Shown here one piece after another: positions 7,043-54,060 of a stretch of 64,000 nucleotides of DNA. The stretch's first letter is position 1, and each line of letters begins with the position of its first letter. The DNA is from Takakia lepidozioides (taxonomy: Eukaryota > Plantae > Bryophyta): the NCBI GenBank assembly GCA_030704615.1, contig CM060734.1:32674001-32738000 (forward strand). The letters run 5' to 3'. Position numbers and translations under genes: made by a program. Below the pieces are notes generated by a model. It saw only the letters and a program-made list of their open reading frames with translations. It was not told where the DNA came from and searched no databases.

Positions 7043-7562
7043 TGTCGTGCACATACATATCGCTACACAACTACATCGCTGTCCAAACCACACCACACAT
7101 ATATGCACAATAAAGTAGTCTGCACAATGATAAGAGCTTGAAAGGACATACACTCCCAACACAAAATATAAATCCATCGCTATCACTCATTTAAACTGAA
7201 GTCGAGCCAGGGGCACCCAAGCTATGGGGACTCCACCCCACAACAACCTGTATCCCTACATAAGCACACTAAACCTAAACACATGCAGGAGCTCGGTCGC
7301 GCAGGCTCAACTCGAGAGAGATGCCTGCGCGACTGCCGCTCTCGTGAAGATAAGACAGACCAGGTGTCAAACTAAACTTGACACCTGATTTAACACTTGA
7401 CCTAAATCCAAGTGTTAAATACAAATAACTAGTTTTATTCTAGCTGTTTTCACACTGTGCTTATTTAACTTGACAGCTGTCGTGCGCATACATATCGCTA
7501 CACAACTACATCGCTGTCCAAACCACACCACACATATATGCACAATAAAGTAGTCTGCACAA
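7043..7562 (-). repeat. 3' terminal B-GC-A-B repeat block of element B copy 1
   Basis: B2 at 7043-7127, A2 at 7128-7475, GC at 7476-7477 and B1 at 7478-7562. A polypurine tract (minus strand AGGGGGGCGA) is adjacent at ~7563-7573. Confidence 0.93.
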
Positions 7563-7819
7563 TCGCCCCCCTAGCTGGTGGATAGGTCCCTCTACCTCCA
7601 GATAGCTACAAGATGTAATAGCCACAGCCGTACTAAGTCCTCTATCACTGTCCCTATCGTACTCAAACTCTATAGACCAAGAGGCCGGGCAAGAGTAGCC
7701 CCATCGTTAGTCGCCGTCTTGCAATCTGTGAACTTGAGCCAGGACTTCGTGTGTTCAAGGTCTCCTAGTAGCTGGGCCTTGCGTTGCTTGTTAGCCTCCC
7801 ATGGTTGTATCCACTCCCA

Positions 7820-10800: not shown

Positions 10801-10932
10801 CCTCAGGAACCGCCGTATACGTCGTCTCTCTCCTCCGGTGACAATGGGTCCAATGTCAGGCTCCCAATTGTCCTCCGTAACTGCAACCTTAAGTCCAGTG
10901 GGCTTAGAGGTAGAGGACGCGTCCCGTGGTTG
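7820..10932 (-). pseudogene. pol: Element B copy 1 RT-RNase H-integrase-PHD (small indels)
   Basis: ORFs 9760..10773, 8244..9866 and 7966..8505 match the intact 991-aa ORF at 50302..53277 almost residue for residue. Confidence 0.93.
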
Positions 10933-11249
10933 CTATGCTGCAACTCTTGAGCAGTACCCCTTCCTGCTCAGTCAATGACAAGGCCTCATCCTGCCCCATC
11001 ATCTCATCATTGAGAACCTCCTCATCCCGAGAAGAATCCCAACCTCATCCATCACAGCTGCCTTCGCTGCCAACTCCCTCTGAACCTCGAGCACCTCCCA
11101 CGTGTGCCATGGATGTCTACACCTCGTGGTCCTCACCGGCTCGCCCCCACTCGCTGCCTGTACCGTCTCGGTAGGCAGAGAGACCGTCAAGGGAAGTGCA
11201 CTCCGCACTCTACGTTGCTCAGCCATAGCCAAGCTGACAATCCAGGTCA

Positions 11250-12177
11250 AGCAATTGAGATCCATTGCTTGCCCCAACACCTGACGACGTGATGCCTCAG
11301 AAAGAGAAGGCACCGCCGTGGTCCCAGTGGAAAACCCCATAGCCCGCTCTCGCTCGTCGGCATTAGGCTCCACTAACTGCTGCAACTGAGCATCCCACAG
11401 GAGGCCAGGTCCACCATCCCGAAAAGCATGGGATCCTGGGAAGCTGAGCAGTGTAGGTAATGCTGCTCGTGGTTGACCCACCTGTTGACCACTGCCAAAA
11501 GCGAACGGTCATCGTGTCTCACACGTTGAGACTGCCTTCCTGTGTCCAAAATGCCATCCACGGTGAGGTGTGCTGGCCGCTGCACCCCATCAAATGCACG
11601 CTTGAGCAGTGCGGGTGGCATCAAGTTAGTCCACCATAGTCGTGGACGATGAGCCCGTGACCCCACTGCAGCTGCATCCAGCAATACTGCTGACCCAAGC
11701 CACGACCGGACTTGATGCACACTGGCCATCACCCTGGCCCGAGAATCACCCATCAGTGGTACATTCTCCAAGATGTATGCTGGAGATACAGCTTGATGAA
11801 GCTGCAAGCAGCGCAAAATCCGCACCATCTCCCAAAACAGACCCGTCCTCGAGTCTCGCAATCCATTGCCATGCCCGGCTGATGAATGCCCTTGGCAGGG
11901 CCAACCTGCCACTATCAGATCAATGGAGCCAACCTGCTCCAAATCTTGCGCCCCCAACAAGGAAATGTCTGCTGGCAAGGCTTGTTGGTATCCACGAACT
12001 GCAGACACAGGCAACAAGTCAGGGTACTGCTGTACCAACTGAGCCACATGGCGCAGTGAGACGCGTCGTGCAGTCTCATCCCTCTCCACATACAGGTAAC
12101 GCCTTACCCGCACACCTGCCTGTAGCACAGCAGCCAATCCGGTGCTGATCCCGCCAAACAAGTCCAGAAGGCAAATG
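11250..12177 (-). pseudogene. DNMT3-like C5 cytosine methyltransferase domain of element B copy 1
   Basis: LLDLFGGISTG (motif I), IDLIVAGWPCQGHS (IV), YILENV (VI), RAHRPRLWWTNL (VIII), ERERAMGF (IX) and LGQAM (X). One frameshift near 11480. Confidence 0.9.
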
Positions 12178-12179
12178 CC

Positions 12180-15122
12180 TTCATCCGGCCGCTGCCACAC
12201 AAGAGGTGTGGTGTCCAATGGCGACAACTGAGGTGGCCCTGGTGCAATCACCGCACTCTCCTCCTCTCCTGACGGTACAAAAGCTTCTACCCAAGCTTGT
12301 TGCACCCGTCCATCAGCAGCTTGCTGCAAATCCTTGCTCGTACCCCACAACGGAGTGTGAGCAACCATGGCAGGCAACTCCGTACCATGCATGTCATCCT
12401 GCTCTGCTGGAGGTGGCACATCCTCTGCATGGGCATTGCCTTCCAGCAACTCTCCAGGCCAACTAACTGCAGCTGTGAAGGCGGCTAGTGTTGGCATCTT
12501 GCCCCGCTGGGCAGCTGCAATACCCCCAATGAATGTCACAGGGAGCTGTGCACGGCGACCATCCCCTGACTGCCATCCAGGCCTGTAGGATGCTGACTCC
12601 CTCCCAGAAATCCAGGGTGAAGCCCATGGGGTATAACACTGCCCCACCAACGAGGACATCGTAAGAGACCGCGTCTGTCACAATGGCCTTGGCTCGCATC
12701 ACTGAGCCATCTACAGGATGATCCGGCTGCAGTCTAATAGCCAACTGATGCCGTGTCATGCCGCGAGCCTGCTCTGATCCTCCCAGAGATGTCTGTATCT
12801 GGAAAGGACAAGGCTCCATATCCGCCTCCATGAGGCCCAAACCTGCAATAGCAGCTCTGCCCAACATCAGTGGCTGAGCTCCTGAGTCCAACAAGACCCG
12901 CAGTGGCCGGTACTTCTTGCCTGCCGGTCCACTCAAAGTGAAAATGCCTCCCTGGTTGTCTAACAAGACAACTCCAGGTGTCACCATGGCGCGCTCAATG
13001 GCTGGCCTAGCTGGCAGCTCCGTCAACCTGGCAGCTGCACTTGCCATGGGCAGCCGTGGCAGTCTTGACCCTCAAATCCGAGGATCCCTCTGCCACTATA
13101 CCTTCCACTAACTCCGCAGAAGATGAAGTGACCTCCCCACTCTCACAGAGTGTTGCTGCTAGTCTGAACACTGCAGCTGGTCTCACCCCCGGCGTCGCAA
13201 TCATGGTTGCCGAGAACAGTGGGGCTTGACACACAGAGGTGGCTGCCCCCAATAACACACCGGCTGCACTAGCCTTGGTAGCAGGTGTCAGTGCTGCACG
13301 TGTAGCTCTCCCCAATGGCATAGTAACCTCCGCCTCGGTAACAGTCGGGCGAGAACTAGGTGCCATGGATGGCGTTGACACTGTCTCCGCCAAGGTGAAT
13401 GACTGAGGCAGCCTCGCCTGACGGCTTGCCTCCCCACGTTGTGGATCCAACTCCACCTCTGCACCTCGTGGCTCAGGAACTCGTGCTGCTCCTCGAGTCA
13501 CGGCAGCAGACTCCACTGCTCTAGTGGTAGTGCTGCTCCGCACATGAATCCCATGCCTCCCATATCTCCTCCCTCAGGAGCAGGAGGTGGACCATCCCGC
13601 CTGGGAGCCGGTACCTGATAGCCATGCAGCGAGCCTCTGCTCTAGCTGCTGAAGCCGATTGGCCATGCCTTGTCAACACCCTGACCTCCGCGTCCTTGGC
13701 CATGTGGAGCTTGCCCTTGGCCTGCACCTCGTGCCCGACCACCTCGTCCTCTTTGGGCTGGTCCACCTCGCCCCCGGCCACCATTGTTCCTCCCTTGGAA
13801 CAGGCCTGGGCGCAACTCAGGATGCAAGTCATAACACTGGCATCCTACAATGCCATACTTGCCACAATGCCCACACTGCAACTGTGCAGGCTGTGCTTGT
13901 GCCGGCTTTCTGCCATTCTCTGGGCAAATCTCTTTTGACATGGGATCCTCCACATGTCCAACATATCACCCCCTGGTTGTTGTTGGCCTGCAAAAGATGG
14001 CCACGGCCCTCTTGCACCTGAGGTCCCTGTGTGCTCCATGAACTTGGGCTGGGCTACCTTGCCCCCCCTGACCACGCTTTGTTGGGCAGTCCCTTGTGCC
14101 TGTGGGCTGACAGCTGTGCCCCGTACAGGCATGTCCTTGCAAAATCCAATTGTAACAACTCGCTCCTCCACCATGTTGAGCTCAATCCGCTCAGCCAGCA
14201 GAAAAACATCTGCTAATTAATGTGGGGTTGGGTGCTTGTAACAAGGTTGCATCTGCACCTTCTCTTGAGCTCCTTGTCCAGAATTCCATACCAAACTGGA
14301 TTGCCTGAGCTTCAGTAACCCCTTGGGTCACACTTATCAAGCGCCTCATACGAGTGTACGCCTCTCGCAGGCTCTCACTGGTTTTGCGCTGGAAGTCTTG
14401 CAAACTTCGCAGCTTTCTTGTCCGTACACCTTGGTAGTTCCTCCGCAACTCCTGGAAGAACTCCACCACCGGGTTGAATCTAGGCACATGTGTTGTAGTC
14501 GTGGCAGGAGGAGTAGTAGCACCTTTTGAACTGGTACCACCTACAGAAGTACCAGCACTACTTGCTCCACTACTAGTGCTGGCAGTGGGAGCTATTGGTA
14601 CTGATGCAGCTACTGGTCGCGTCGTGCCTCGAGTAATGGAGACGTAGTCAGGTGACCAATACATCCTCCACTCCTCATCTCTGCTTCATGTCCTCGCCTG
14701 AACTCGTGGTAATCGTCCATAGGCGGGCCTTCCAAATGCTGGAACAGTCCCTTCCACGCCATGAATGGGGTGAATAGTTGTGGATTGCGCATCTGCTGCA
14801 AATCACACCAGCTGTCGAACTCCTGGATAAAGTCATCCAACTCGATTGTGCCCACAGCTCCAGAGTACCTACGAGGCCCCTTGGTAGCTCCATACATCTC
14901 CTCCATGTCGTCCCACAACAATGGCGGATGAAAGTGCACACCTGTTGATGAAGCCTCCGAGTCTGTGTCTGACTCTATAGTAGTTGAGGGTGGCGGTGAA
15001 GGTGGTCTGAACCGAATACCTCGTCTTGTGAACCCACTCTCACTGTTACTGCTTGTAGCCGTACTTCCCTCAAAACCCTTGGGTAACTCCGTAATGACAC
15101 TCACAATGTGCACCTCCTCCAC
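12180..15122 (-). pseudogene. gag: Element B copy 1 gag (two CCHC knuckles) and aspartic protease
   Basis: LDDFIQEFDSWC and ESLREAYTRMRRL gag-like segments, CWTCGG.HVKRDC and CGHCGKYGH knuckles, and protease LLDSGA. Several frameshifts. Confidence 0.82.
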
Positions 15123-15638
15123 GTGACACTATAAGGCTCTAGTACTAATCTAATAGTGACACGGGTGGGCACCTGTTGCAGTCTAAGGGTCATATCCCAA
15201 TGGCTCAGGGCACCTGCACCTGCATCCACCGCAAGAACTCCTATGGTTGGCTGGTCATCAACCCAGCCTCACCATAGAAGAAACACTGGTGGTCTTGCTG
15301 GTCATCACTCAGCCTCACCACCGACAGCATACTCTAGGATTGACCGGGTGATCAAATCCGGCCTATCCCTATGAAAGCAAGCGCCCACACAAAACCAACA
15401 TGGCGCACAGTCAAGCATGCAGGTGTTGGGGGGGATCCAACACAAGAAATCAAAGCATCAACACCCCCACACCAAAATCCAGCAGCAACGCTGATCCTGC
15501 AGAATATCCCAGCCCAAACCCCGGACTGACTGGCCTCCACCAAGAGAGGCTTTGGCAACTACAAGTACAAGGTAATGAAAATAGTACAGAGATGGAGGGG
15601 AAGAATAGAAGCCCGCCCAAGCAAGATCTAATCCTGAT

Positions 15639-16470
15639 CTATGCTATCAACTTCCAGACTTCTCTCAAAGTGCCTCGCTCTGCTTGATGGTAAGGTGTAG
15701 GAGGTATATCTATGTCCAGAAACCTGCCACTAACCTTGTCCCAAGCTACAGTAGCTCGCTCTAACCAACCCTCCTCCTCTTTCTGCCAGGTAGAGACAAA
15801 GCAATACTCCCCTATCTCCCGCTCACTGAACACTAAAGAAAACAAAGGTAGGGTCTGATAGTCTCTCAACTCGAAAGCTTTGAGACGGTTGCGGGTGTCC
15901 TCATTGCGAATGACTGCATCTCCTTCACGCACAACAAACATGTCATTGCTGATGAACCCCCGCTCGTGGTTCCCTGTGCAGAGCGTATCCGGCTGCAACC
16001 ATGTCTGATTGCACAAACTTGTGTAGCTCCTGCTCCTTTTGCTCCAGTACACCACGGCCTTGTCTGAACACCTTGGTCCCCGGGGCTGTCTTTGGCTGTG
16101 TTCCAAGCCTAGCTTTCACCCACTTTGGTATTTCACCTACAGCTGCAGAACTGCTGGCTCCAACAGAGTTCTGACTGTCCAAGGCGATATTGAGGCCCTC
16201 AATGCCAACTACAGCAGTCTGTTGTCTACTGCTAATGCCTGACTCCCAGTATGCAATCAACTCGTCCAACTGTTCTCCACTCAAATCAGTCTGAGTTCCT
16301 TGGGAAACATAAATCTGTCCCCTTGTGTGCACAGACTAAAGAGAAGAGACCTGCCCTTCAATTACGTCCTCATTTCCCCCAGCCATGCAAGGAGTACATC
16401 CACCAATTTGTCTTCATATAGACCAGCACAGGTTCTAGAGACAGGATTGTGGATCTTTCATGGCACACTC
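15639..16470 (-). pseudogene. Extra ORF of unknown function upstream of gag in element B
   Basis: ORFs 15943..16332 and 15639..16106 join across one frameshift. The homologous sequence lies at ~44583-45413 in copy 2. Confidence 0.55.
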
Positions 16471-16989
16471 ACACTCTAAAAATTCCATAGATTTTTAGTA
16501 GAGTCCCAAAAACACCATGTCTAGATAGTAGTAGATTTCCCCTTTCTGCAGCTATCCCTCAAAAACTGAGTCAAACGGAGCTCATTTGACAAAGATATGA
16601 CCAACCAGGCTCTTTAAACATTTAAATTAGATCAAAAGGTTTTTTTTTTTTTTTTTTTTTTTAACACCAAAACGCTTTTGCCATTACAACCTGTTCCCAG
16701 GTTATCTACGAGTTCCCGAGGTCGTTCATGTAGTTCTCACATGTTCCCTTACCAATGTCCACAGAGCTTGAGCTGCCAAAACAAAACGGGATCTTTGCAC
16801 CACGGCCAAGGAAAGGGGCCGCAGCAAGCCGCGTGCATGCCATTGCTGTCGCCATCTCTTTCCCGCTTCCTCACCTAGCCCAAGCTTGCAAACTCTGAGT
16901 GGGCTCTATTGCGAGTTTCTCCTCGCCGAGCAGATGCCAGCACAGCGACGACAGATCGAACGGACGGCCAATCTTCGAACCTAAATTCA

Positions 16990-17275
<286 letters not shown>

Positions 17276-17393
17276 TGATTTGGTGTCCGCCAGACTTATG
17301 CTTCCTGGCCCCAGCCGAATAGAGAGAACGCTGCCCCAACAATTGTAGATTCCGCTTCGCTTATTTGAAGACGATGCTTGGCAAAATCTTATC

Positions 17394-17910
17394 TCAGTAA
17401 GTGATATTAAGAAACTTGGCCATGGCTTCCACGGCACCTGGTGGCCACCAGCTCTACACCAATCCACCTGATATTGCTGTACTGCGGTTCCCGAGCAGTG
17501 GTCTCAGAGAACCGTTCCTCTGCCCGGCTGCGGTCACCTTCTCTCCACAGCACTGCCGCTAGAGCTGCATGAGCCTCAGTGTAATTTGGATACTTCCGGA
17601 CAAGGCCTTGTATCAGTTTCTTGGCCTCCCCCAATCTGTCGAGCTGAAAGAGAACCAGAGCTTACTTGAGTCGGTATCTGAAATCCTGGGCCGCCTCCTC
17701 AAACTTCAGAAGGGAGACCCTCACACTCCCCCGGTTGGACCAGACACTGGCATTTGCGGAATCCTCATCTATCAAAGCTGAAAACAATTCTTCAGCAGTT
17801 TCCAGGTTTCCAGCAACCGCCGCCCTGAGAGCATCCTGCAGCTTGGGATTTTCAACGTCTTTGAGCTTTACTCTCGTTGAAACTGCTGCTTTTGCAGGAA
17901 GGATCAACAT
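17394..17910 (-). pseudogene. Captured TPR-protein gene fragment with C-terminus and stop (no intron visible, internally deleted)
   Basis: ASVWSNRGSVRVSLLKFEEAAQDF and LVRKYPNYTEAHAALAAVLWREG...AMAKFLNITY* are TPR helices. Confidence 0.72.
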
Positions 17911-18541
17911 TGCCCAACCTTAGTGCTCCAAGTGCCACAGAAAGGCTGAAAACAGCTGGCGTCAGGCAGTTACTGACGAGTGCCCTGCGATACCGGCATT
18001 ACCATCTTCCTTTCGTTGTAGTCGTCTCTCTGCCTAGCCGCTCCTCAGCTACAGACCGCAGGCTTCGTTGAAACTTGAGCTGGGTAATACCCTGATTTCT
18101 TGGGCTCTCCATAAGCGGTACCCTTGCTCACAGGCCCTTCAATCCAAAAACGGGCTGGCTTGGAGTCACCCACGGCAAGCCCTTCATTTCCACTCCACAC
18201 GGCAGCCCTGAGACGATGACAGGATCGCTGCAGAAAATCTAGGCACGAAAAAGAGCTAACCTCTAACCCGTCGTTACTTGATGAATCAATCAGGCAGCAT
18301 TCATCTCCAGTAGCCTGAGCAAGATCTCTCTACTAAACGCGTGACTCCAGCAAGATCCGCTAGCAGTAACTGCAAGAAGTATCCACCGCAAGCTTAATAG
18401 CTTTCTGCCGCTCCGGAATGGTTAAACACTCAGTTGAATCATTCACAGACCTGTGTCACACCAAGGTATATTATAATAGTGCTAAAACAAACATTATATC
18501 TAGCTTAGCACTAGAAAACTAGATGGCTGATCTCTCTCGAG

Positions 18542-18897
18542 TGATAAAGACGCTTGAAAGGACATACACACCCAACACAAGAAATATAAAATCCATCGCT
18601 ATCACTCATTGAAACTGAAGTCGAGCCAGGGGCACCCCAAGCTATGGGGACTCCACCCCACAACAACCTGTATCCCTACATAAGCACACTAAAACCTAAA
18701 CACATGCAGGAGCTCGGTCGCGCAGGCTCAACTCGAGAGAGATGAGCTGCGCGACTGCCGCTCTCGTGAAGATAAGACAGACCAGGTGTCAAACTAAACT
18801 TGACACCTGATTTAACACTTGACCTAAATCCAAGTGTTAAATACAAATAACTAGTTTTATTCTAGCTGTTTTCACACTGTGCTTATTTAACTTGACA
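18542..18897 (-). repeat. 5' terminal A repeat of element B copy 1
   Basis: Direct repeat of 7128-7475. On the minus strand it reads TGTCAAG...TATCA and is followed by CTCGAGAGAGATCA. Confidence 0.93.
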
Positions 18898-30057: not shown

Positions 30058-30547
30058 AAGGCAGGCGAATCGAAAGCGGAGGGAAGTGAAGTTTGAGGCA
30101 GGCACGGAGGTCTGGTTGAACATCAAGAATTTCCGACTACCTCCGGAAGTGAGTCCGAAGTTCGTACCTCCGTATGCGGGACCCTTTCGCATTCGGAAGG
30201 TTATGAATGAGGATGTGTATGAATTGGAGCTGTCGGCAAACAGCAAGGTGCACCCAGTATTCCATGTCTCCATTTTGAAGCCTTACTTCAAAGATGAAGC
30301 GCGTCCGAATCGGCATCAAGTGTTGCGCCCGCCACCTATGCTGTTGGATCATGAAAATGAACCCGAGTACGAGGTGGAGGCAATACTTAAGTCAATGAGG
30401 TTCAAGAACCGAGAAACGGAGTATCTCGTCAAATGGAAGGGCTATCATCATGTGGAGGCATCTTGGGTGCGTGCCTCAGAAATGGGAAACGCATCCGAGG
30501 CGGTCGCAGCTTTCGAAGGGCGACCTCAAAAGCGGAAGAAGCGTTGA
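30058..30547 (+). pseudogene. Element A integrase C-terminus (GPY/F) and chromodomain
   Basis: YAGPFRI, HPVFHVSILKPY and YEVEAIL...EYLVKWKGY...SW motifs. Joins 19825 in frame (KRY-ERQANRKR). Confidence 0.9.
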
Positions 30548-30620
30548 TGGGGACATCAACCTTGGAGCGTGGGGGAGGAAATGCATGCTTAGCCCGGCTT
30601 AGCTAGCTTAGGAATCCGAG

Positions 30621-42304: not shown

Positions 42305-42656
42305 TGTCAAGTTAAATAAGCACAGTGTGAAAACAGCTAGAATAAAACTAGTTATTTGTATTTAACACTTGGATTTAGGTCAAGTGTTAAATCAGGTGTC
42401 AAGTTTAGTTTGACACCTGGTCTGTCTTATCTTCACGAGAGCGGCAGTCGCGCGGCTCATCTCTCTCGAGTTGAGCCTGCGCGACCGAGCTCCTTCCTGC
42501 GTTTAGAAGCTGTGTGTGTTTATGATGGGAGTGTAGGTTGTTGTGGGGTGGAGTCCCCATAGCTTGGGGTGCCCCTGGCTCGACTTCTATTTCAAAGAGT
42601 GATGATTTTGGTTTCCATGTTTTGTGTCAACAGTGTGTTAAAGAGTCTTTCTATCA
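42305..42656 (+). repeat. 5' terminal A repeat (352 bp) of element B copy 2
   Basis: Appears identical by eye to 53623-53974; the ORF track gives identical 68-aa translations at 42356 and 53674. Confidence 0.95.
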
Positions 42657-42668
42657 CTCGAGAGAGAT
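42656..42668 (+). promoter_or_regulatory. Candidate self-priming primer-binding site
   Basis: ACTCGAGAGAGAT is the exact reverse complement of 42459-42471 inside A. It is conserved in copy 1, and there is no TGG-type tRNA PBS. Confidence 0.7.
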
Positions 42669-43549
42669 CACCTCTTACCTGTGAGTGCAAGGTAGGAGTT
42701 GAGGGTTAGCACTTGTATGATTACCTGTGTGAGAGTAGTGCTTAGTTTAAGAAGCTTTAAAATATATATATATATATATATATGCAGGTTTCGATCAGCG
42801 TTGGTTCTGGCATAAGGCCGCCGGGCAGGACGGAGCTACACTGCATGGAAGCAGCCTTCGTTTTGGTCAGTGAGGAGATATCATGGTGGAGCAGCAGGAT
42901 GATGCGCAAATGTAAGGAAAACTGTGTCTGTTGGTAGCTACTGACAACCGCAACTCTGTCCCTGGACTTCTTCTCCGGAGGTGGAAGCCTGTGTGCAGCG
43001 TGCATGCAAGAGTGTGGTTGTGACAGGGGAACAAGCGCTTGCGGTTGCATTACTACTGCAAGTTGGGCACTCGGTGCGTCGCTATAACTGCAATTGTACA
43101 GGAGCACTGTGAGAGGCAGATTGTTCTGCAGCCTTGCTATACCTGGTCAGTCCAATGGTGACACATCCATACCTTGTTAAAGCAATATGGACAGTTGTCG
43201 ATGAGGACGGCTCTATGAAGGACACTGCGAGCTAAGAAGGGCTCGGGTACAAAAGCACACACTGGAGCGTTTAAGCAAGTTAGGGCGGGAAAAAGAAAAA
43301 CAGGCCCAAATAGCCAAGCACATGAAGTAGTGAATGTTGATGGAAGAAACCTGTGACACTCCCATTTTGCTGGAGGAGATCGTTGATTAATTGATGTCCC
43401 CGGAGCTTCAGGACAGGCCCTACAATCGCTGGCTAACAAGACTGATTTACAAGCAAAACCTGCAGGGCAATCTGCCGAGAGCCTCATCTGCTTCTCGGAG
43501 GGGTTTCCGTAAGTTCCTTCTTTCCCAGGCCCTTGTGTCGACCTTCTCC

Positions 43550-43935
43550 ATGTTCCTTTGTCTCTCTCACCATCCTGCTGCCTCGGCAAGCTCGCAGTGG
43601 AGACCTGCTTGCGGGCTGTTTTCTGGATTTAGAGTGGGTTTGAAGTATAGAAAAGAACTTGGAGATTACAGTGGGCAGGTCGCAGCCGGTGCGTCCTTGA
43701 CGTGGAAGGCCACAACGGAGAGGAATGTGGTAGCCAGGGCTGCTGGAGATGCCCCAGAGTCAGAGGTCGAGATTGTTCCTGAGGTCACCATCCCAGCCAT
43801 AGTTTCCCCTCAAGTCAAAAAGCATAATTGTTAAAGAAGAAGGCTAAACGATTGGAGCTTCGAAGGAAGAGGCTGGTGCGCAAGCGCAAGTTAAGGAAGA
43901 AAGGCCAATGGCCTCCTTCCAAAATGGCCAAATCA
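43550..43935 (+). pseudogene. PSRP5: Captured plastid-specific ribosomal protein PSRP5 (cL37) coding sequence
   Basis: Transit-peptide-like N-terminus (..VVARAAG), then LKKKAKRLELRRKRLVRKRKLRKKGQWPPSKMAK. One frameshift; no intron visible. Confidence 0.82.
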
Positions 43936-44582
43936 AGAATGTATAGGGCCCAGGAGGGTTCAAGGATAAGAAGAAAAGAAAGTATCACGTCTGCGGGAGG
44001 TCCAACAGGTCCAAGGAGCACACGTACAACACCACAGTAGAACCACAGACATCAAAAAAAAAAAGGGCAGCTCAATTCTCAAACTTCACACACAACAGGT
44101 GTCGCAATCAACGGCCAAGCTCTTGTATGCTCTGCTGCTCTGCTCCTGTTGTGCTGAATGTTGGTGAAGTGAAGCTGTGGTTTCGATGTGGCAGATGTGT
44201 TGTGCAAGTTCCAGCAACCATCCACGAATCGTTCGATTGCAGGCCGCCTGTCCATAAGCCATGAGGGTGTTGCGCAGTGCATCTCTTGATCTGCTCTTGA
44301 AATCGCCCCTACCTGGACGAACTACCTGGATGTGTTGGGAACTCGTAGGTGACTTGGGAGCAGTTATAATGACAAAAGCGTTTTGGTGTTAAAAAAAAAA
44401 AAAAAAGCCTTTTTGATCTAATTTAAATGTTTAAAGAGCCTGGTTGGTCATATCTTTGTCAAATGGACTCCGTTTGACTCAGTTTTTGGGGGAATAGCTG
44501 CAGAAAGGGGAAATCTACCTATCTAGACCTGGTTTCTGTTTTTGGGACTCTGCTAAAAATCTATGGAATTTTTAGAGTGTGA

Positions 44583-45413
44583 GTGTGCCATGAAAGATCC
44601 ACAATCTTGTTTCTAGAACCTGTGCTGGTCTATATGAGAGACAAATCTGTGGATGTACTCCTTGTAGGCTGGGGGAAGGAGGACGAATTGAAGGGCAGGT
44701 CTCTTCTCTTAGCCTGTGCACCAAGGGGACAGGATCTATGTTTCCCCCAAGGCACTCAGACTGATTTGAGTGGAGAACAGTTGTGACGGTGTGATTGCAT
44801 ACTGGGAGTCAGGCCTTATCAGTAGACAACAGACTGCTTCAGTTGGCATTGAGGGCCTCATATCGCCTTGGGCCGTCAGAACTCTGTTGGAGCCAGCAGT
44901 TCTGCAGCTGTAGGTGAAATACCAAAGTGGGTGGAAGCAGGTATGGAACACAGCCCAAGACAGCCCCGGGGACCAAGGTGTTCAGCCACAAGGCCGTGGT
45001 GTACTGGAGCAGAGGAGCAGGATTCGACACAAGTTTTCTGCAATCAGACAGGTTTGCAACCGGATACGCCTGCACCAGGGCAACCACGATCTGGGGTTCA
45101 TCAGCAAACATGTTTGTTGTGCGTGAAGGGAGGCAGTCATTCGCAATGATGACCCCGCAACCGTCTCAAAGCTTTCGAGTTGAAGACTATCAGACCCTAC
45201 CCTTTGTTTTCTTTAGTGTTCAGTGAGCGGGAATAGCAGATGTTGCATTTGTCTCTACCTGGCAGAAAGAGGAGGAGGGTTGGTTAGAGCGAGCTACTGT
45301 AGCTTGGGACAAGGTTAGTGGCAGGTTTCTGGACATAGATATACCTCCTACCCCTTATACCATCATGCAGAGCGAGGCACTATTGAGAGAAGTCTGGCAG
45401 TTGAATAGCATAG
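44583..45413 (+). pseudogene. Extra unknown ORF of element B copy 2 (many indels)
   Basis: Homologous to 15639-16470 minus (QGTQTDLSGEQL, SSSAAVGEIPKWV, DYQTLP). Confidence 0.5.
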
Positions 45414-45938
45414 ATCAGGATTAGATCTTGCTTGGTCGGGCTTTCTATTCTTCCCTCCATCTCTTACTATTTTCATACCTTATACTTGTAGTTGCCAAAG
45501 CCTCTTGGTGGAGGCCAGTCAGTCCGGGGTTTGGGCTGGGATATTCTGCAGGATCACAAGCGTTGCTGCTGGATTTTGGGTGTGGGTGTGTTGATGTTTT
45601 GATTTTCTTGTGTGTTGGATCCCCCCCAACACCTGCATGCTTGACTGTGCGCCATGTTGGTTTTTGTGTGGGCGCTTGTGCTTTCATAGGGATTAGGCCG
45701 GATTTGATCACCGGTCAATCCTAGAGTATGCTGTCGGTGGTGAGGCTGGATGATGACCAGCAAGACCACCAGTGGTTTCTTCTATGGTGAGGCTGGTTTG
45801 ATGACCAGCCAACCATAGGAGTTCTTGCGGTGGATGCAGGTGCAGGTGCCCTGAGCCATTGGGATATGAACCCTTAGACTGCAACAGGTGCCCACCCGTG
45901 TCACTATTAGATTAGGTACTAGAGCCTTATAGTGTCAC

Positions 45939-48895
45939 GTGGAGGAGTGCACATTGTGAGTGTCATTACGGAGTTACCCAAGGGGTTTGGAGGGGAGTAC
46001 GGCCTACAGGCAGTAACAGTGAGAGTGGGTTCACAAGACGAGGTATTCGTTTCAGACCACCTTCACCGCCACCCTCAATTACTGTAGAGTCAGACACAGA
46101 CTCGGAGGCTTCACAACAGGTGTGGCAATTTCCATTCGCCCATTGTGTTGTGGGAAACATGGAGGAGATGTATGGAGCTACCAAGGGCCTCGTAGTACTC
46201 TGGAGCTGTGGGCACAATCGAGTTGGATGACTTTATCCAGGAGATTCGACACTGGTGTGATTTGCAGCAGGATGCCAATCCACATCTATTCACCCATTCA
46301 CCCCATTCATGGCGTGGAACGGGACTGTTCCAGCATTTGGAAGGCCGCCTATGGACGATTACCACGAGTTCAGGCGAGGACATGAAGCAGAGATTGAGGA
46401 GTGGAGTATGTATTGGTCACCTGACTACATCTCCATTACTCGAGGCACGACGCGACCAGTAGCTTGCCTCAGTACCAATAGCTCCCACTGCCAGCACTAG
46501 TAGTGGAGCAAGTAGTGCGTGGTACTTCTGCAGGTGTACCAGTTCAGAAGTGCTACTACTCTCCTCCCTGCCACAGACTACAACACATGTGCCTAGATTC
46601 AACCCGGTGGTGGAGTTCTTCCAGGAGTTGCGGAGAACTACCAAGGTGTACGGACAGAGAAGCTGCGAAGTTTGCAAGACTTCCAGCGCAAACCCAGTGA
46701 GAGCCTGCGAGAGGCGTACACTCGTATGAGGCGCTTGATAAGTGTGACCCAAGTTTACTGAAGCTCAGGCAATCCAGTTTTGGTATGGAATTCTGGACAA
46801 GGAGCTCAAGAGAAGGGTGCGAGATGCAACCCTGTTACAAGCAGCCCAACCCACATTTAGCAGATGTGTTTCTGCTGGCTGAGCGATTGAGCTCAACATG
46901 GTGGAGGAGCGAGTTGTTACAATTGGATTGGTAGGACATGCCTGTACTACGGTGCACAGTTGTCAGCCCACAAGCACAAGGACTGCCCAACAGCGTGGTC
47001 AGGGGGCAAGGTTGCCCAGCCCATGGAGCTTACACAGGGGACCTCAGGTGCAGAGGCCCGTGGCAATCTTTGCATGCCAACAGCAACCAGGGGGTGATTG
47101 TTGGACATGGCGGAGGACCCCATGTCAAGAGAGATTGCCCAGAGAGTGGCAGAAGGCCGGCACAAGCACAGCCTGCACAGTTGCAGTGTGGGCATTGTGG
47201 CAAGTATGGGCATGGAGATGCCCAGTGTTATGACTTGCATCCTGAGTTGCGCCCAGGCCAGTTTCCAAGGGAACAATGGTGGCCGGGGGCGAGGTGGACC
47301 AGCCCAAAGAGGACGAGGTGGTCGGGCACGAGGTGCAGGCCAAGGCAACCTCCACATGGCCAAGGACGCGGAGGTCAGGGTGTTGACCAAGGCATGGCCA
47401 ATCGGCTTCAGCAGCTAGAGCAGAGGCTCGCTGCCATGGCTATAGCTCAGGCGGTACCGGCTCCCAGGCGGGATGGCCCACCTCCTGCTCTGAGGGAGGA
47501 GATATGGGCGGAATGGGATTCATGTGCGGAGCAGCACTACCATTAGAGCAGGTGGAGTCTGCTGCAGCCGTGACTCGAGGAGCAACACGAGTTCCTGAGC
47601 CACGAGGTGCAGAGGTGGAGTTGGATCCACAACGTGGGAGGCAAGCCGTCAGGCAAGGCTGCCTCAGTCATTCACCTTGGCGGAGACAGTGTCAACGCCA
47701 TCCATGGCACCTAGTTCTCGCCCGACTGTTACCGAGGCGGAGGTTACTATGCCATTGGGGAGAGCTACCCGTGCAGCACTGACACCTACTACCAGGCTAG
47801 TGCAGCCGGTGTGTTATTGGGAGCAGCCACCTCTGTGTGTCAAGCCCCACTGTTCTCGGCAACCATGATTGCGACGCCGGGAGTGAGACCAGCTGCAGTG
47901 TTCAGACTAGCAGCAACACTCTGCGAGAGTGGAGAGGTCACTTCATCTTCTGCGGAGTTAGTAAAAGGTGTAGTGGCAGAGGGATCCTCGGATTTGAGGG
48001 TCAAGACTGCCACGGCAGCGCCCTGGCAAGCTGCAGCTGCCAGATTGACGGAGCTGCCAGCTAGGCCAGCCTTTGAGCGCGCCATGGTGACACCTGGAGT
48101 TGTCTTGTTAGACAACCAGGGAGGCATTTTCACTTTGAGTGGACCGGCAGGCAAGAAGTACCGGCCACTGCGGGTCTTGTTGGACTCAGGAGCTCAGCCA
48201 CTGATGTTGGGCAGAGCTGCTATTGCAGGTTTGGGCCTCATGGAGGCGGATATGGAGCCTTGTCCTTTCCAGATACAGACATCTCTGGGAGGATCAGAGC
48301 AGGCTCGCGGCATGACACGGCATCAGTTGGCTATTAGACTGCAGCCGGATCATCCTGTAGATGGCTCAGTGATGCGAGCCAAGGCCATTGTGACAGACGC
48401 GGTCTCTTACGATGTCCTCGTTGGTGGGGCAGTGTTATACCCCATGGGCTTCACCCTGGATTTCTGGGAGGAGTCAGCATCCTACAGGCCTGGATGGCAG
48501 TCAGGGGATGGTCGCCGTGCACAGCTCCCTGTGACATTCATTGGGGGTATTGCAGCTGCTCAGCGGGGCAAGATGCCAACACTAGCCGCCTTCACAGCTG
48601 CAGTCAGCTGGCCTGGAGAGTTGCTGGAAGGCAATGCCCATGCAGAGGATGTGCCACCTCCAGCAGAGCAGGATGACATGCATGGTACGGCGGAGTTGCC
48701 TGCCATGGTTGCTCACACTCCGTTGTGGGTACGAGCAAGGATTTGCAGCACGCTGCTGATGGACGGGTGCAACAAGCTTGGTTAGAAGCTTTTGTACCGT
48801 CAGGAGAGGAGGAGAGTGCGGTGATTGTACCAGGGCCACCTCAGTTGTCGCCATTGGACACCACACCTCTTGTGTGGCAGCGACCGGATGAAGGC
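45939..48895 (+). pseudogene. gag: Element B copy 2 gag and protease
   Basis: GTIELDDFIQE, HVKRDC and CGHCGKYGHGDAQC knuckles, and LLDSGA in ORF 47811..48785. Dense indels before 47800. Confidence 0.82.
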
Positions 48896-50142
48896 ATATG
48901 CCTTCTGGACTTATTTGGCGGGATCAGCACTGGATTGGCTGCAGTGCTGCAGGCAGGTGTACGAGTTCGACGTTACCTGTATGTGGAGAGGGATGAGACT
49001 GCACGACGCGTCTCACTGCGCCATGTTGCTCAGATGGTGCAGCAGCATCCTGAGTTGTTGCCGGTGTCTGCAGTTCGTGGATATCAGCAGCCTTGCCAGC
49101 AGACATTGCGTTGCTGGGGGCGCAGGATTTGGAGCGGGTTGGCTCCATTGATCTGGTAGTGGCAGGTTGGCCCTGCCAAGGGCATTCATCAGCCGGGCAT
49201 GGCAATGGATTGCGAGACTCGAGGACGGGTCTGTTTTGGGAGATGGTGCGGATTTTGCGCCACTTGCAGCTTCATCAGGCTGTATCTCCGGCATACATCT
49301 TGGAGAATGTGCCACTGATGGGTGATTCTCGGGCCAGGGTGATGGCCAGTGTGCATCAAGTCCGGTCGTGGCTTGGGTCAGCAGTATTGCTGGATGCAGC
49401 TGCAGTGGGGTCACGGGCTCATCGTCCACGACTATGGTGGACTAACTTGATGCCACCCGCACTGCTCAAGCGTGCATTTGATGGGGTGCAGCGGCCAGCA
49501 CACCTCACCGTGGATGGCATTTTGGACACAGGAAGGCAGTCTCAACGTGTGAGACACGATGACCGTTCGCCTTTGGCAGTGGTCAACAGAGTGGGTCAAC
49601 CACGAGCAGCATTACCTACACTGCTCAGCTTCCCAGGATCCCATGCTTTTCGGGATGGTGGACCTGGCCTCCTGTGGGATGCTCAGTTGCAGCAGTTAGT
49701 GGAGCCTAATGCCGACGAGCGAGAGCGGGCTATGGGGTTTTCCACTGGGACCACGGCGGTGCCTTCTCTTTCTGAGGCATCACGTCGTCAGGTGTTGGGG
49801 CAAGCAATGGATCTCAATTGCTTGACCTGGATTGTCAGCTTGGCTATGGCTGAGCAACGTAGAGTGCGGAGTGCACTTCCCTTGATGGTCTCTCTGCCTA
49901 CCGAGACGGTACAGGCAGCGAGTGGGGGCGAGCCGGTGAGGACCACGAGGTGTAGACATCCATGGCACATGTGGGAGGTGCTCGAGGTTCAGAGGGAGTT
50001 GGCAGCGAAGGCAGCTGTGATGGATGAGGTTGGGGATTCTTCTCGGGATGAGGAGGTTCTCAATGATGAGATGATGGGGCAGGATGAGGCCTTGTCATTG
50101 ACTGAGCAGGAAGGGGGTACTGCTCAAGAGGTTGCAGCATAG
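48896..50142 (+). CDS. DNMT3-like C5 cytosine methyltransferase domain (one apparent frameshift near 49090), ending at a UAG
   Basis: Motifs I (LFGGISTG), II (YVERD), IV (GWPCQG), VI (ENV), VIII (HRPR), IX and X (LGQAM) occur in canonical order in ORFs 48725..49159 and 49093..50142. Confidence 0.92.
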
Positions 50143-53100
50143 CAACCACGGGACGCGTCCTCTACCTCTAAGCCCACTGGACTTAAGGTTGCAGTTACGG
50201 AGGACAATTGGGAGCCTGATATTGGACCCATTGTCACCGGAGGAGAGAGACGACGTATACGGCGGTTCCTGAGGGCTTACAGGAATTGCTTTGCCTTCAG
50301 TTTGAAGGACTTGGGAGCACTGAAGGGTCAAGAGATCCGTATTGAGTTGGCCACTGACACGCCAATCTTTCGGAGACCCTATAGATACAGTGACATGGAG
50401 AGGTCTTTGATTCAGATGAGGACTCAAGATCTCTGGGAGGCAGGTTTGGTGGAGCTCTCTGGTGGAGAGTATGCTTCAGCCACAGTGATGCCAGCTAAGA
50501 AGGATGTCTATGGCAATTGGACGGAGAGACGTATGTGCGGTGATTACCGGCCTGTAAATCGTCAGACCAAGTCCGATAGGTATGCCATGCCAACACCAGA
50601 GGAGATCTTTGATGCCATTGGGCATTCCAAGGTCTTTAGCACGTTGGATTTACGATCCGGATATCACCAGTTGCCGATCAAGGAGGCGGATAAGCAAAAG
50701 ACGGCATTCTGGGGGATCAATGAGCACGGGAAGGATTGCCTATACCAGTGGCGGTTCTTACCATTTGGGCTTAAAAACGCTCCCGCTGAGTTTCAAAGAG
50801 TCATGGACAGGATTCTAGCAGGGGTGGAGTTTGCTCGGTGCTACATAGATGACATCATCATCTTTAGTGCTACGGTGGAGGAGCATGAGAGACACCTTCA
50901 GGGGGTATTTGAGCGCTTGAGGACGCACGGATTGAAGTTACATCCGGGCAAGTGCAAGTTTTTCCACAACCAGATTGAGTATCTGGGTCACATGATATAT
51001 CCTGGAGGATTGGGGGTACAACAGACTAAGGTAGAGTCCATTGCACAGGTTCCACGCCCCACGGATGTGAGCCGAGTTCGAGCTTTCATGGGGTTAGCAA
51101 ACTATTACAGACGGTTTGTTAAGGGATTTAGTGCCATTGCAAAGGCTCTAACCAAGCTGACCAAGGTGGACCAGGAGTGGCAGTGGGAAGATGAGCAAGA
51201 ACAAGCTTTTCAAGAGCTCAAGGCGAGGTTGACCTCGGCGCCCATCTTGAGACGACCTATCAGGGGGCGTCCTTTTCAGCTGCATACAGATTGGAGCATG
51301 CTGGGGCTTGGAGCGGTGCTCACACAGGTGGATGATGAGGGAAGAGAGTTCGTAGTGGCTTATGCTAGCCGCTCGAACAATGCTGCAGAGTCTAAGTATA
51401 GCTCATATGAGGGAGAATGCTTAGCTGCAGTGTGGGCCGTGGCACACTTCAGGTGCTATCTATACGGCAATCTCTTCACCCTTGTCACGGATCACCAACC
51501 ACTCAAGTGGTTGATGGAGTCAGACAAGCTTACGGGGAAGCTTGCACGGTGGGCACTCATCCTTCAAGAGTATGACTTTCAGGTGGTGCATCGACCGGGT
51601 TTGGTCAATCGAAATGCAGATGGGTTGAGTCGCAATCCATGCACGAGCCAGCAGGATGACACTGGAGCTCGGTGGCATGGTGAGACGGACGAGGAGATGG
51701 TGCCCGGATGGCATGCATCTGCATTTCTGTGTATCTTGGCAGCGGAAGGCCAGGTTGGACCTACAACAGGGATGACTGTAGATCAAGTGTCTGAGGACCC
51801 TGAGGCCAGCAATGAGCAGGGTGGCGCCAAAGATATACATGAGGATTCAGTTGTGTTGGACTACCTCCGCAGTGGAGACACGGCAGCCACTATGACTGCC
51901 AAGGAGAGGGATCGGATCCTACAACGAGCCAAGAGGTTCAGGTGGGAGGGGACACACCTGCTCCGAGTGTGGGAGGATGGTCGAGTGAGGATTGTGCCTC
52001 ACCCAACACAGCGGGCACGGTTAGTGCGGCATGCCCATGAGGAGTTGGGGCATTTTGGGGTGCGACGCACTCATAGTCTACTGCAGGGGCAGTATTGGTG
52101 GCGTGGTATGCACACAGAGGTGCAACAATTTGTGGCTAGGTGCATGGTGTGTGACAGGGTGCGTGCTTCATTCAACGCCCCTACTCCACAATTGCACCCT
52201 CTTCCGATCATGGGATTGGGCTACAGGTGGAGTCTTGACTTCGCAGGGCCGTTGCCACTGACCATGCGCCACAACAAGTACGTGTTGGTGATGGTGGAGC
52301 ACTTCTCCAAGTGGATTGAATTGGTTCCATTGCCTGATAAGGCTAGTGAGGGAGCTGCGTATGCATTCCTGGATTGTGTGCTTAGCCGATTCGGTGCTCC
52401 AGCTGAGGTACTCACGGACCAAGGGAGAGAGTTCTTGGGGGAGTTTCAGGCTTTGTGTGACAAGGCCTTGATAGACCACCGCACCACTTCTCGGGATCAT
52501 CCTGAAGCCGATGGCTTGGCAGAGAGAGTTGTTCAGACAGTAAAGAGGGGTTTGCGCAAGTATGGCTTGCAGAAGGGACACCTAGGAGATTGGGACCTTC
52601 AGTTACCCTGGTTAGCCATGGGCTACAGGTTCAGCAAGCAAGCATCACTTGCCTCCTCCTCACCATACTTTCTTCTCTTTGGCCGAGAGCCGGATTTGCC
52701 TACATCCATTCGCAGAGAAGCTGCTACAGTTCTTAACCTTGACGATCCGGACGTGTGGGCACGTGCATGTGAGCAGCGTGCAGAGTTGTTCAAGAGAGTC
52801 ATGCCTATGGCTTTCGAGAACCTTGCCATTGCACAACACCGTGATACGTTGAGGTATGCTACCATACGTGGTGGGGGCTATCGTCCTGGGGTTCGGAGAT
52901 TCAACCCTGGTGACTATGTCTATCTGCAGCAGACTGCTCCTACGACCCTGGATGTGACTGCAGGACGTGTTATTTTGAGGGTTCGAGAGGTCTTGCCCTC
53001 AGGCGTCTTGGTCTTGGAGGGTCGGGATGGCATCACTTGGAAGGACCATGTGCGTAATTGTGCGCCATGTCACCTTCCGAATGTCGATGGCAGGATTGAC

Positions 53101-53277
53101 CCAAACCTGGCAGTGGTATCTGCAGGTTTGAGGTGCATGTTGTGTGGGTCTGCTAAAGGGGCAGCCACCATGCTGGTATGTGATCGGTGCTCTAGAGGTT
53201 GGCATATGGGATGCTTGACTCCACCTCTTGAGATGGTTCCGGATGGGGATTGGTTATGTCCACATTGCATTGGATAG
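50143..53277 (+). CDS. pol: Open RT-RNase H-integrase-PHD polyprotein frame
   Basis: Open from the UAG to 53277. Motifs: RRMCGDYR, LPFGLKNAP, YIDD, HTDWS, HHCC (HEELGH..CMVC), D-D-E (SLDFAG, TDQGREF, GLAERV) and a C-terminal C4HC3 PHD at 53134-53268. Confidence 0.96.
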   Translation, partial: QPRDASSTSKPTGLKVAVTEDNWEPDIGPIVTGGERRRIRRFLRAYRNCFAFSLKDLGALKGQEIRIELATDTPIFRRPYRYSDMERSLIQMRTQDLWEAGLVELSGGEYASATVMPAKKDVYGNWTERRMCGDYRPVNRQTKSDRYAMPTPEEIFDAIGHSKVFSTLDLRSGYHQLPIKEADKQKTAFWGINEHGKDCLYQWRFLPFGLKNAPAEFQRVMDRILAGVEFARCYIDDIIIFSATVEEHERHLQGVFERLRTHGLKLHPGKCKFFHNQIEYLGHMIYPGGLGVQQTKVESIAQVPRPTDVSRVRAFMGLANYYRRFVKGFSAIAKALTKLTKVDQEWQWEDEQEQAFQELKARLTSAPILRRPIRGRPFQLHTDWSMLGLGAVLTQVDDEGREFVVAYASRSNNAAESKYSSYEGECLAAVWAVAHFRCYLYGNLFTLVTDHQPLKWLMESDKLTGKLARWALILQEYDFQVVHRPGLVNRNADGLSRNPCTSQQDDTGARWHGETDEEMVPGWHASAFLCILAAEGQVGPTTGMTVDQVSEDPEASNEQGGAKDIHEDSVVLDYLRSGDTAATMTAKERDRILQRAKRFRWEGTHLLRVWEDGRVRIVPHPTQRARLVRHAHEELGHFGVRRTHSLLQGQYWWRGMHTEVQQFVARCMVCDRVRASFNAPTPQLHPLPIMGLGYRWSLDFAGPLPLTMRHNKYVLVMVEHFSKWIELVPLPDKASEGAAYAFLDCVLSRFGAPAEVLTDQGREFLGEFQALCDKALIDHRTTSRDHPEADGLAERVVQTVKRGLRKYGLQKGHLGDWDLQLPWLAMGYRFSKQASLASSSPYFLLFGREPDLPTSIRREAATVLNLDDPDVWARACEQRAELFKRVMPMAFENLAIAQHRDTLRYATIRGGGYRPGVRRFNPGDYVYLQQTAPTTLDVTAGRVILRVREVLPSGVLVLEGRDGITWKDHVRNCAPCHLPNVDGRIDPNLAVVSAGLRCMLCGSAKGAATMLVCDRCSRGWHMGCLTPPLEMVPDGDWLCPHCIG

Positions 53278-53524
53278 TGGGAGTGGATACAACCATGGGA
53301 GGCTAACAAGAAATGCAAGGCCCAGCTACTAGGAGACCTTGAACACACGAGATCTTGGCTCAAGTTCATAGATTGCAAGACGGCGACTAACGATGGGGCT
53401 ACTCTTGTACCCGGCCTCTTGGTTGATAGAGTTTGAGCTCGATAAAACAGTGATAGAGGACTTAGTACGGCTGTGGCTATTACATCTTGTAGCTATCTGG
53501 AGGTAGGGGACCTATCCACCAGCT

Positions 53525-54060
53525 AGGGGGGCGATTGTGCTAGACTACTTTATTGTGCATATATGTGTGGTGTGGTTTGGACAGCGATGTAGTTGTGTAG
53601 CGATATGTATGCGCACGACAGCTGTCAAGTTAAATAAGCACAGTGTGAAAACAGCTAGAATAAAACTAGTTATTTGTATTTAACACTTGGATTTAGGTCA
53701 AGTGTTAAATCAGGTGTCAAGTTTAGTTTGACACCTGGTCTGTCTTATCTTCACGAGAGCGGCAGTCGCGCGGCTCATCTCTCTCGAGTTGAGCCTGCGC
53801 GACCGAGCTCCTTCCTGCGTTTAGAAGCTGTGTGTGTTTATGATGGGAGTGTAGGTTGTTGTGGGGTGGAGTCCCCATAGCTTGGGGTGCCCCTGGCTCG
53901 ACTTCTATTTCAAAGAGTGATGATTTTGGTTTCCATGTTTTGTGTCAACAGTGTGTTAAAGAGTCTTTCTATCATTGTGCTAGACTACTTTATTGTGCAT
54001 ATATGTGTGGTGTGGTTTGGACAGCGATGTAGTTGTGTAGCGATATGTATGCGCACGACA
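53525..54060 (+). repeat. PPT followed by the B1-GC-A2-T-B2 terminal block of element B copy 2
   Basis: AGGGGGGCGA at 53525-53534, B1 at 53536-53620, GC at 53621-53622, A2 at 53623-53974 and B2 at 53976-54060 (85 bp, matching B1). Confidence 0.95.

Follow-up and report, generated by a model that had tools for sequence, protein, structure and literature searches.

KnitGypsy-Dnmt3 of the alga Klebsormidium nitens combines Gypsy domains with DIRS-like repeats and has a DNA methyltransferase (DNMT) within its Pol open reading frame (ORF) (de Mendoza et al. 2018, PMC5890265). Independently of methyltransferases, in-frame stop codons have been described in several retroelements, among them murine leukaemia virus (MuLV), Tca2 of Candida, Tj1, Tosmo and Tcry of fission yeasts, SIRE1 of soybean (between pol and env) and, as a candidate, RIRE2 of rice (PMC2194720, bioRxiv 2022.12.06.519325, PMC2754532). 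UAG-CAR-YYA constitutes the type I readthrough signal, which is sufficient for readthrough without RNA structure and is active in plant cells (PMC3542737, PMC2754532), where tyrosine is inserted at the UAG (PMC2754532). According to a paper from 2009, the readthrough cases verified in plants were then all viral (PMC2754532).

Here we analyzed a stretch of 64,000 nucleotides (nt) from the bryophyte Takakia lepidozioides (assembly GCA_030704615.1, contig CM060734.1, positions 32,674,001 to 32,738,000; hereafter the window, with positions counted from its first letter). It contains two copies of a Gypsy-type retrotransposon in which a DNMT3-like domain ends the first frame (ORF1), directly before the frame for reverse transcriptase (RT), RNase H (RH), integrase (IN) and a PHD finger (ORF2). 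We found that the UAG at 50140 that separates the two frames is a conserved in-frame stop, and its sequence context and relatives suggest that type I (tobamovirus-type) readthrough into Pol is probably its best explanation.

A stop codon in readthrough context between methyltransferase and reverse transcriptase

The original prediction, made from the letters alone, held that the DNMT frame ends at TAG and that the same frame continues through RT to 53277, which the sequence confirms. On the plus strand, TAG at 50140-50142 is followed directly by CAACCA (through 50148). Pfam DNA_methylase (E 3.6e-13) matches the product of frame 49054-50142, which is the C-terminal half of a DNMT3-like methyltransferase; the 1044-codon frame 50143-53277 matches Pfam RVT_1, RT_RNaseH, Integrase_H2C2, rve and PHD. 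Both lie in one phase, with the TAG as the sole stop between the C-terminal half of the DNMT and the RT-RNaseH-integrase-PHD part, whose earliest in-frame ATG is codon 85. The assignment of UAG-CARYYA to the tobamovirus type also proved correct, as the context matches the type I consensus (PMC3542737, PMC2754532). By chance, CARYYA rarely follows a stop: it does so at 13 of 4819 stop triplets (0.27%) in the six frames of the window, 2 of the 13 being the TAG CAA CCA site.

The identical 9-mer TAG CAA CCA is indeed present in copy 1 (minus strand, 10935-10927), as had been noted, but it has no value as evidence for conservation, because copies 1 and 2 are nearly identical there (4 substitutions in all across 49500-51000) and their agreement at the stop is not independent. 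In addition, neither copy has an unbroken Gag-protease (PR)-DNMT frame. Both carry many private indels, mostly of 1 nt in homopolymer runs, and the alignment of the two copies has 72 gap columns from 46360 to the stop. Three 1-nt deletions shortly 5' of the stop shift the DNMT frame of copy 1, and a 1-nt indel at ~49088, found in copy 2 only, splits the DNMT. Short-read contigs of the window family list no indel across 49300-51300, indicating that copy 2 has the family frame in this part and that the indels of copy 1 are private or assembly errors. In the short-read run X2 (921 contigs), positions 50136, 50137, 50150, 50160 and 50161 vary, but 50138-50148 have no listed difference reaching 1%; a contig from another organism (X11), with 15 differences in 109 nt, is likewise free of listed differences at 50138-50148, a zone so short that both observations are weak alone. 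On its own, the window demonstrates neither independent conservation of the stop nor an intact Gag-PR-DNMT frame.

Conservation of the stop and its context in relatives

Relatives were obtained from a metagenome scan (best 80 of 290 loci), in which the DNMT-RT junction was measurable in 61 loci, 28 of a close and 33 of a distant group, and from a GTDB genome scan, which gave one useful locus (L098) among five. Two of these relatives are unbroken at the DNA level. L044 has, in one frame, an ORF1 of 1369 codons (PR, DNMT), TAG CAG TTA and an ORF2 of 1047 codons (RT-RH-IN-PHD), and L098 has 1162+ codons, TAG CAA TCA and again 1047 codons in the same frame without any other stop. In the six frames of L044, CARYYA follows one of 773 stop triplets, the junction site itself; in L098 it follows 2 of 633, one of them the junction. 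Several predicted proteins also end shortly after the DNMT, namely those of Marchantia (1278-1281 amino acids) and the Calypogeia-like P0276 (1319 amino acids). Together with L044, these proteins show that ORF1 encodes Gag-PR-DNMT, as had been predicted. The stop lies 99 to 130 codons behind DNMT motif X, and protein families of Marchantia, Calypogeia and several further ones end 77-163 residues past this motif, compared to 114 in the window.

At the junction column of the close group, 27 of the 28 loci have a stop (20 TAG, 7 TAA; one TAC), and CAR-YY comes next in 27/28. The complete CARYYA is present in three of the 28 (L044, L045 and L071), and UAG followed by CAR YYA was found in the window, L044, L045, L071 and L098. 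The expectation that stop and hexamer would be conserved in diverged relatives thus holds for the stop and CAR-YY, including L044 and L098, but not for the sixth base, since the Sphagnum-type copies have CAA CCC. This conservation is seen across considerable divergence: the window and L044 share 52% amino acid identity in the DNMT and 63-77% in the Pol domains, and their third positions are 51-70% different. In the 30 nt on either side of the stop (ungapped), 12/30 and 9/30 positions match, whereas TAG CA is kept. Differences in the hexamer among the window, L044/L045 and L071/L098 are confined to its R/Y-degenerate positions even though they alter the second encoded residue (QP, QL and QS), which points to a constraint at the nucleotide level. 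Purifying selection is evident on both sides of the stop, including RT residues 22-85 ahead of the first in-frame ATG.

Among named proteins, the closest are those of Sphagnum and of two liverworts, Calypogeia and Marchantia; judging from these matches, the family likely belongs to mosses and liverworts. Viral contigs gave only matches to phage-type methyltransferases (17 loci) and none to Pol. L098 itself (contig CADCWO010000201.1) is an unbroken plant-type retrotransposon filed in a cyanobacterial bin, and its Pol is listed in UniRef under that bacterium; the contig is evidently eukaryotic and probably a contamination.

The methyltransferase of these elements is DNMT3-like. Its catalytic motifs stand in the standard order of a non-rearranged Dnmt3-like domain, and the top PDB matches, obtained with the domain of L044, are DNMT3A/3B/3C (E 1.7e-7). 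We take DLFGGISTG to be I-like, PCQ to be motif IV, ENV VI, RxR VIII and GQAMDL X-like. Methyltransferase activity is putative, with motif conservation and purifying selection as its indications.

Decay of the copies and the stop column

We compared the stop column with sites of mutational decay. In the Sphagnum-type set, which comprised 25 copies after removal of 4 near-duplicates from 29, the column has 17 TAG, 7 TAA, 1 TAC and not a single CAG or CAA. By comparison, CAG-to-TAG decay hot spots in the stop-free distant family (20 loci aligned) affect at most 10/20 copies, and the rest keep the sense codon. The complete lack of sense CAG/CAA at the stop column therefore indicates that the junction site is not a mutation hot spot. 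A mobile subfamily of TAA copies would have argued against the TAG as a splice acceptor; the seven TAA copies of the 25 are scattered over the tree, and their rate lies within the C-to-T background in CTA context (mean 15%, 0-9/25 per site), which fits ordinary deamination.

A DNMT column with stops in 10/20 copies of the stop-free family was considered as a second recoding site and rejected, as it is a CAG decay hot spot. Separately, C-to-T decay in the Sphagnum-type loci L018-L054 amounts to ~16-24% at CG/CWG, 14-15% at CTA/CTC and 2-3% at CCH and CAC/CAT, a pattern that is possibly a trace of a non-CG methylation preference of the host.

Origin of the stop

More distant relatives, mostly of algal type, are single-ORF. 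In the distant family of the metagenome scan, a single frame runs open from Gag through to RT. Among its same-frame loci, the DNMT-RT linker is free of stops in 13/20, and the others have scattered stops. A search for long polyproteins found the DNMT fused to RT in 9 of 36 matches, all of them 43-49% identical in RT. In the window element a stop separates the DNMT from RT, and a DNMT within the Pol ORF alongside RT was seen only in distant relatives. A DNMT tree with 46 rows, labelled in advance, groups the 19 whose frame ends after the DNMT (6 of them checked on DNA) into one clade (SH-like approximate likelihood ratio test (SH-aLRT) 89) that contains 0/27 of the others. Most simply, a single-ORF ancestor probably acquired the stop a single time, and one branch may have lost it or exchanged domains.

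Two further arrangements were observed among the relatives. In a related clade (P0038-P0057, P0146, P0148, P0153, P0165), the DNMT lies between RNase H and integrase and not before RT, so the domain has moved within the polyprotein. Moreover, L055-L097 (e.g. L061, 3423-12738) represent a second, single-ORF Gypsy-DNMT family with the same split repeats, found alongside the stop-bearing Sphagnum-type family in the same metagenome samples.

Probable readthrough and alternative explanations

If the site acts as a type I signal, most translation would end with Gag-PR-DNMT, and the full polyprotein would be a minor product of those few ribosomes that CAR-YY(A) lets pass the UAG and continue through RT-RNaseH-integrase-PHD. 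The UAG would be decoded by a near-cognate tRNA, possibly for tyrosine, as happens in planta with the context of tobacco mosaic virus (TMV) (PMC2754532), and by analogy with values measured for viral type I contexts, the efficiency may be roughly 5-30%. The protease of the element would then release RT. Such a stop, gained once from a single-ORF ancestor, would cut the output of RT/IN and leave PR and DNMT on a par with Gag. The downstream frame agrees with this mechanism in being in phase, under selection and without a start of its own, with exceptions in the Sphagnum-type copies and L045; in L044 and L098, no in-frame ATG of ORF2 occurs before codon 117, which lies inside conserved RT. Type II/III readthrough would call for a 3' RNA structure, namely a conserved stem-loop or pseudoknot ~8 nt after the stop. 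Folding z-scores 3' of the stop (pseudoknots lie outside the model) range from -0.4 to -2.4 in the window, ~-3 to -4.7 in L071/L098 and +1.2 to -2.9 in the Sphagnum type, and no fold shared downstream of the stop was seen by eye among these three.

A number of observations weigh against readthrough or its conservation. Sphagnum-type copies are off-consensus at the sixth base (C in 24/25, T in 1/25). The changes in the hexamer are transitions, a class that is favoured anyway. About four independent lineages were seen as DNA, and the contexts of the Marchantia, Calypogeia and P0015-type families are known as protein ends only. Potential starts lie close behind the stop in some lineages, namely an ATG three codons past it in the Sphagnum type, an ATG at +5 in L045 and a GTG at +5 in L044/L071/L098. 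As for the single origin, the SH-aLRT of 89 for the DNMT clade is not starred, and the fused P0287/P0110 (2811 amino acids) stands among the stop-bearing lineages in the RT and Pol trees, at weak or open forks. A topology that holds the split elements as one clade was not rejected (approximately unbiased test, p-AU 0.39), and the DNMT of P0287 falls outside the stop-bearing DNMT clade.

The ATG and GTG codons close behind the stop bear on the idea of a separate translation of Pol, in which ribosomes would re-initiate, or begin on a transcript started further downstream, at an AUG or GUG nearby. They leave some room for re-initiation in the Sphagnum-type, L045 and L044/L071/L098 lineages. A GTG is also found at the called start of cluster members annotated by the Joint Genome Institute, and a transcript-derived Pol of Coleochaete (P0098) has been called a complete ORF of 1083 amino acids. 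In the window family, however, no ATG, GTG or CTG occurs near the stop, the possible start sites are not in a single register across families, and separate initiation leaves the conservation of CAR-YY unexplained. A free Pol would also have no Gag fusion for packaging. Taken together, we consider separate translation quite unlikely. Conservation of CAR-YY, here on the exon side, is likewise unexplained by splicing, be it an Ogre-like intron between Gag-PR(-DNMT) and RT that removes the stop or a TAG that serves as 3' splice acceptor. Ogre elements do separate GAG-PROT from RT-RH-INT and splice an intron there (PMC6317226); TAG|C is formally a YAG, and a T-rich run (14/22 pyrimidines) precedes the stop in the Sphagnum type. 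Yet ORF1 and ORF2 abut in phase without a spacer in every intact lineage, and within 450 nt upstream no donor-like site is conserved, single matches occurring in 2/5 sequences at different places. The pyrimidine content before the TAG (10-14/22) compares to a background median of 10-11, and AGs nearer upstream exist. At the DNA level, then, neither an Ogre-type intron with splice sites between the PR and RT frames nor a conserved donor or acceptor was found, and a spliced pol mRNA, which the original prediction had named as one way to be refuted, appears unlikely.

The prediction had named a shared nonsense mutation as another. Many CAG-to-TAG and TGG-to-TAG changes have occurred in these families and the window copies are broken elsewhere, as would be expected if the TAG were an inherited mutation or a hot spot of deamination carried by copies that are dead or non-autonomous. 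In contrast, L044 and L098 are otherwise unbroken and carry this stop only, a sense codon was met in the close group only in the single TAC locus, and the stop is common to lineages with near-saturated third positions whose Pol is under purifying selection. Furthermore, the identical A repeats of copy 2 and its 4-bp target duplication indicate that the window family transposed recently while carrying the stop. The explanation by nonsense mutation is largely refuted and very improbable. With readthrough as the preferred mechanism, the site is a real, conserved, predicted recoding signal.

Meaning of the stop for methyltransferase stoichiometry

The prediction further proposed that Gag-PR-DNMT is the major product and that Pol is made by readthrough, so that the methyltransferase would be packaged at near-Gag stoichiometry. 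On the sequence evidence, readthrough is the best mechanism; should it hold, the DNMT would stand on the abundant side. Its packaging into particles is hypothetical, and the notion that the stop lifts the DNMT to the level of Gag does not stand. Because single-ORF relatives would already make the DNMT 1:1 with Gag, the stop would lower RT-RH-IN-PHD and not raise the DNMT. It may have been selected to keep the DNMT abundant, or it may simply have arisen in the longest free linker. A more far-reaching scenario, which we regard as possible but doubtful, is that an ancient bryophyte Gypsy-DNMT3 lineage with split repeats adopted the tobamovirus signal independently, after the DNMT, as it needs an excess of DNMT over RT/integrase. 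Particles with hundreds of DNMT3 might then pre-methylate the newly made cDNA, or free DNMT might rewrite host chromatin, with PHD-tipped integrase kept scarce. Many such ORF1 genes are annotated as hypothetical proteins in Marchantia, so this scenario, if true, would be testable in a model plant.

Overall, our results add liverworts and mosses, the model Marchantia among them, to the one alga from which DNMT3-carrying Gypsy elements were known, and predict that a TMV-type readthrough signal is naturally used in cellular genomes of non-seed plants. The recoding position may also provide a handle on the role of the retrotransposon DNMT, a question left open in PMC5890265, as altering the stop or its context would shift the DNMT:RT ratio with the enzymes untouched. 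Current gene models bridge or cut the stop with false introns (e.g. P0006, P0010, P0012), and as a result these elements are mis-annotated as hypothetical host genes.

Architecture and surroundings of the two copies

The coordinates of the element are compiled in Table 1. It has the Ty3/Gypsy domain order Gag-PR-RT-RH-IN, and its TG...CA ends with 4-bp target duplications (ACTG and CATC) correspond to integrase-type insertion (4-6 bp). In place of two complete identical long terminal repeats (LTRs), we found split direct repeats (A...B-A-B), a layout also present in L061, L066 and L092. In function it is thus Gypsy-like, whereas its ends are non-canonical. In Pfam, Gag gave a weak Retrotrans_gag match in copy 1, and it was located via homology to Marchantia P0003 and single-ORF relatives; Asp_protease_2 is below threshold in L044/L098 and above the cut-off in the single-ORF relative P0075.

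Table 1. Features of the DNMT-carrying retrotransposon in the window
Feature	Position	Strand	Remarks
In-frame UAG + CAA CCA, fits type I readthrough consensus CAR YYA	50140..50148	+	sequence and relatives
ORF2: linker, RT (YIDD at 50842), RNase H, H2C2 zinc finger, integrase core, C-terminal PHD finger	50143..53277	+	
DNMT3-like C5 cytosine methyltransferase	48900..49850	+	DLFGGISTG 48908, PCQ 49162, ENV 49297, RxR 49417, GQAMDL 49795
Frame with aspartic protease (LLDSGA at 48177)	47715..48785	+	
Gag region, CCHC-type knuckle near 47187; private indels break copy 2 here; start approximate	46150..47700	+	tblastn with Marchantia P0003
Copy 2, full element: Gypsy-type retrotransposon with DNMT3-like domain, split direct repeats, TG...CA ends	42305..54060	+	4-bp target duplication ACTG (42301-42304 / 54061-54064)
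5' repeat A	42305..42656	+	352/352 identical to 53623-53974
3' split repeats: B 53534-53624, A 53623-53974, B 53974-54060	53534..54060	+	
Copy 1, same family as copy 2	7043..18897	-	4-bp target duplication CATC; TAG CAA CCA at 10935-10927

The two copies are 95.6% identical except for ~1.7 kb behind repeat A that cannot be aligned (~42660-44337 versus ~18600-16717 in copy 1), reflecting either a variable 5' leader or recombination. Long frames flank copy 2 on the plus strand (40892-42319 and 54041-55273); a SWIM zinc finger was recognized in the right-hand one (Pfam E 9e-5). The two frames look like the halves of one transposase gene split by the insertion of copy 2, presumably of a Mutator-like element (MULE). 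A separate, ordinary Gypsy element (4212-6881, plus strand; Ty3 capsid, CCHC, protease, RT, RNase H) adjoins the end of copy 1 and is possibly the site where copy 1 inserted. Arrays of ~300-nt repeats, with copies 75-89% alike, are scattered over the window (400-3100, 19870-20300 and 23200-38200).

Comparison with known systems

Both parts of this arrangement are already known, the Gypsy-Dnmt3 element from Klebsormidium and readthrough from other retrotransposons; their combination was not found in the literature searched. Within this search, whose coverage excluded most subscription papers, figures and Repbase, neither readthrough in a DNMT-carrying retrotransposon nor a Gypsy-DNMT3 in bryophytes was reported, and Gypsy-DNMT3 was named only in the accessible parts of PMC5890265 and bioRxiv 2026.05.21.726589. 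A text search of the three supplements of PMC5890265 gave no matches; its Fig. 4c and Suppl. Fig. 13, outside this coverage, could show the ORF layout or bryophyte members. The available text of PMC12344493, PMC10952607, PMC2533021 and PMC9033089 contains nothing on the DNMT-RT junction.

The type I signal of tobamovirus, benyvirus and pomovirus has a consensus identical to that in the window, L044/L045 and L071/L098, does not require a 3' structure and likewise has the polymerase on the readthrough side (PMC3542737, PMC2754532). In contrast to these viruses, the signal resides here in a retrotransposon, is known from sequence and reads CAA CCC in one lineage. The stops of SIRE1 and RIRE2 have a CARYYA-like context as well. 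As in elements of the MuLV, Tca2 and Tj1 type, one in-frame stop would set the ratio of structural to enzymatic proteins, and for the fission-yeast elements the gain of a stop from a single-ORF ancestor has also been proposed. However, in MuLV, Tca2, Tj1 and SIRE1 the stops lie between Gag and PR or between Pol and Env, whereas the stop in the window follows PR and an accessory methyltransferase, immediately ahead of RT. A split behind the protease and ahead of RT is shared by Ogre and other plant Gypsy groups whose first ORF is GAG-PROT (PMC6317226). Of the view that a recoding site after PR and an accessory enzyme is atypical for Gypsy elements, the part concerning a readthrough context after an accessory enzyme can be maintained, but the Gag-PR/RT split by itself is not unusual. 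Ogre differs from the window element in that it has an intron of ~274 bp at this place (PMC6317226), while the latter has a single stop without a spacer and the DNMT on the first ORF.

The closest counterpart is KnitGypsy-Dnmt3. It shares with the window element the Gypsy domain set, a non-rearranged Dnmt3-like domain and, judged by the figure legend, DIRS-like repeats instead of plain LTRs, and the wider RT clade of the window element also includes Klebsormidium proteins. The two elements differ in the placement of the DNMT. In KnitGypsy-Dnmt3 it is described as belonging to the ORF of the Pol polyprotein, and the accessible text does not mention readthrough, whereas that of the window element ends ORF1 before UAG-CAR-YY(A) in an element whose nearest named hosts are liverworts and Sphagnum.

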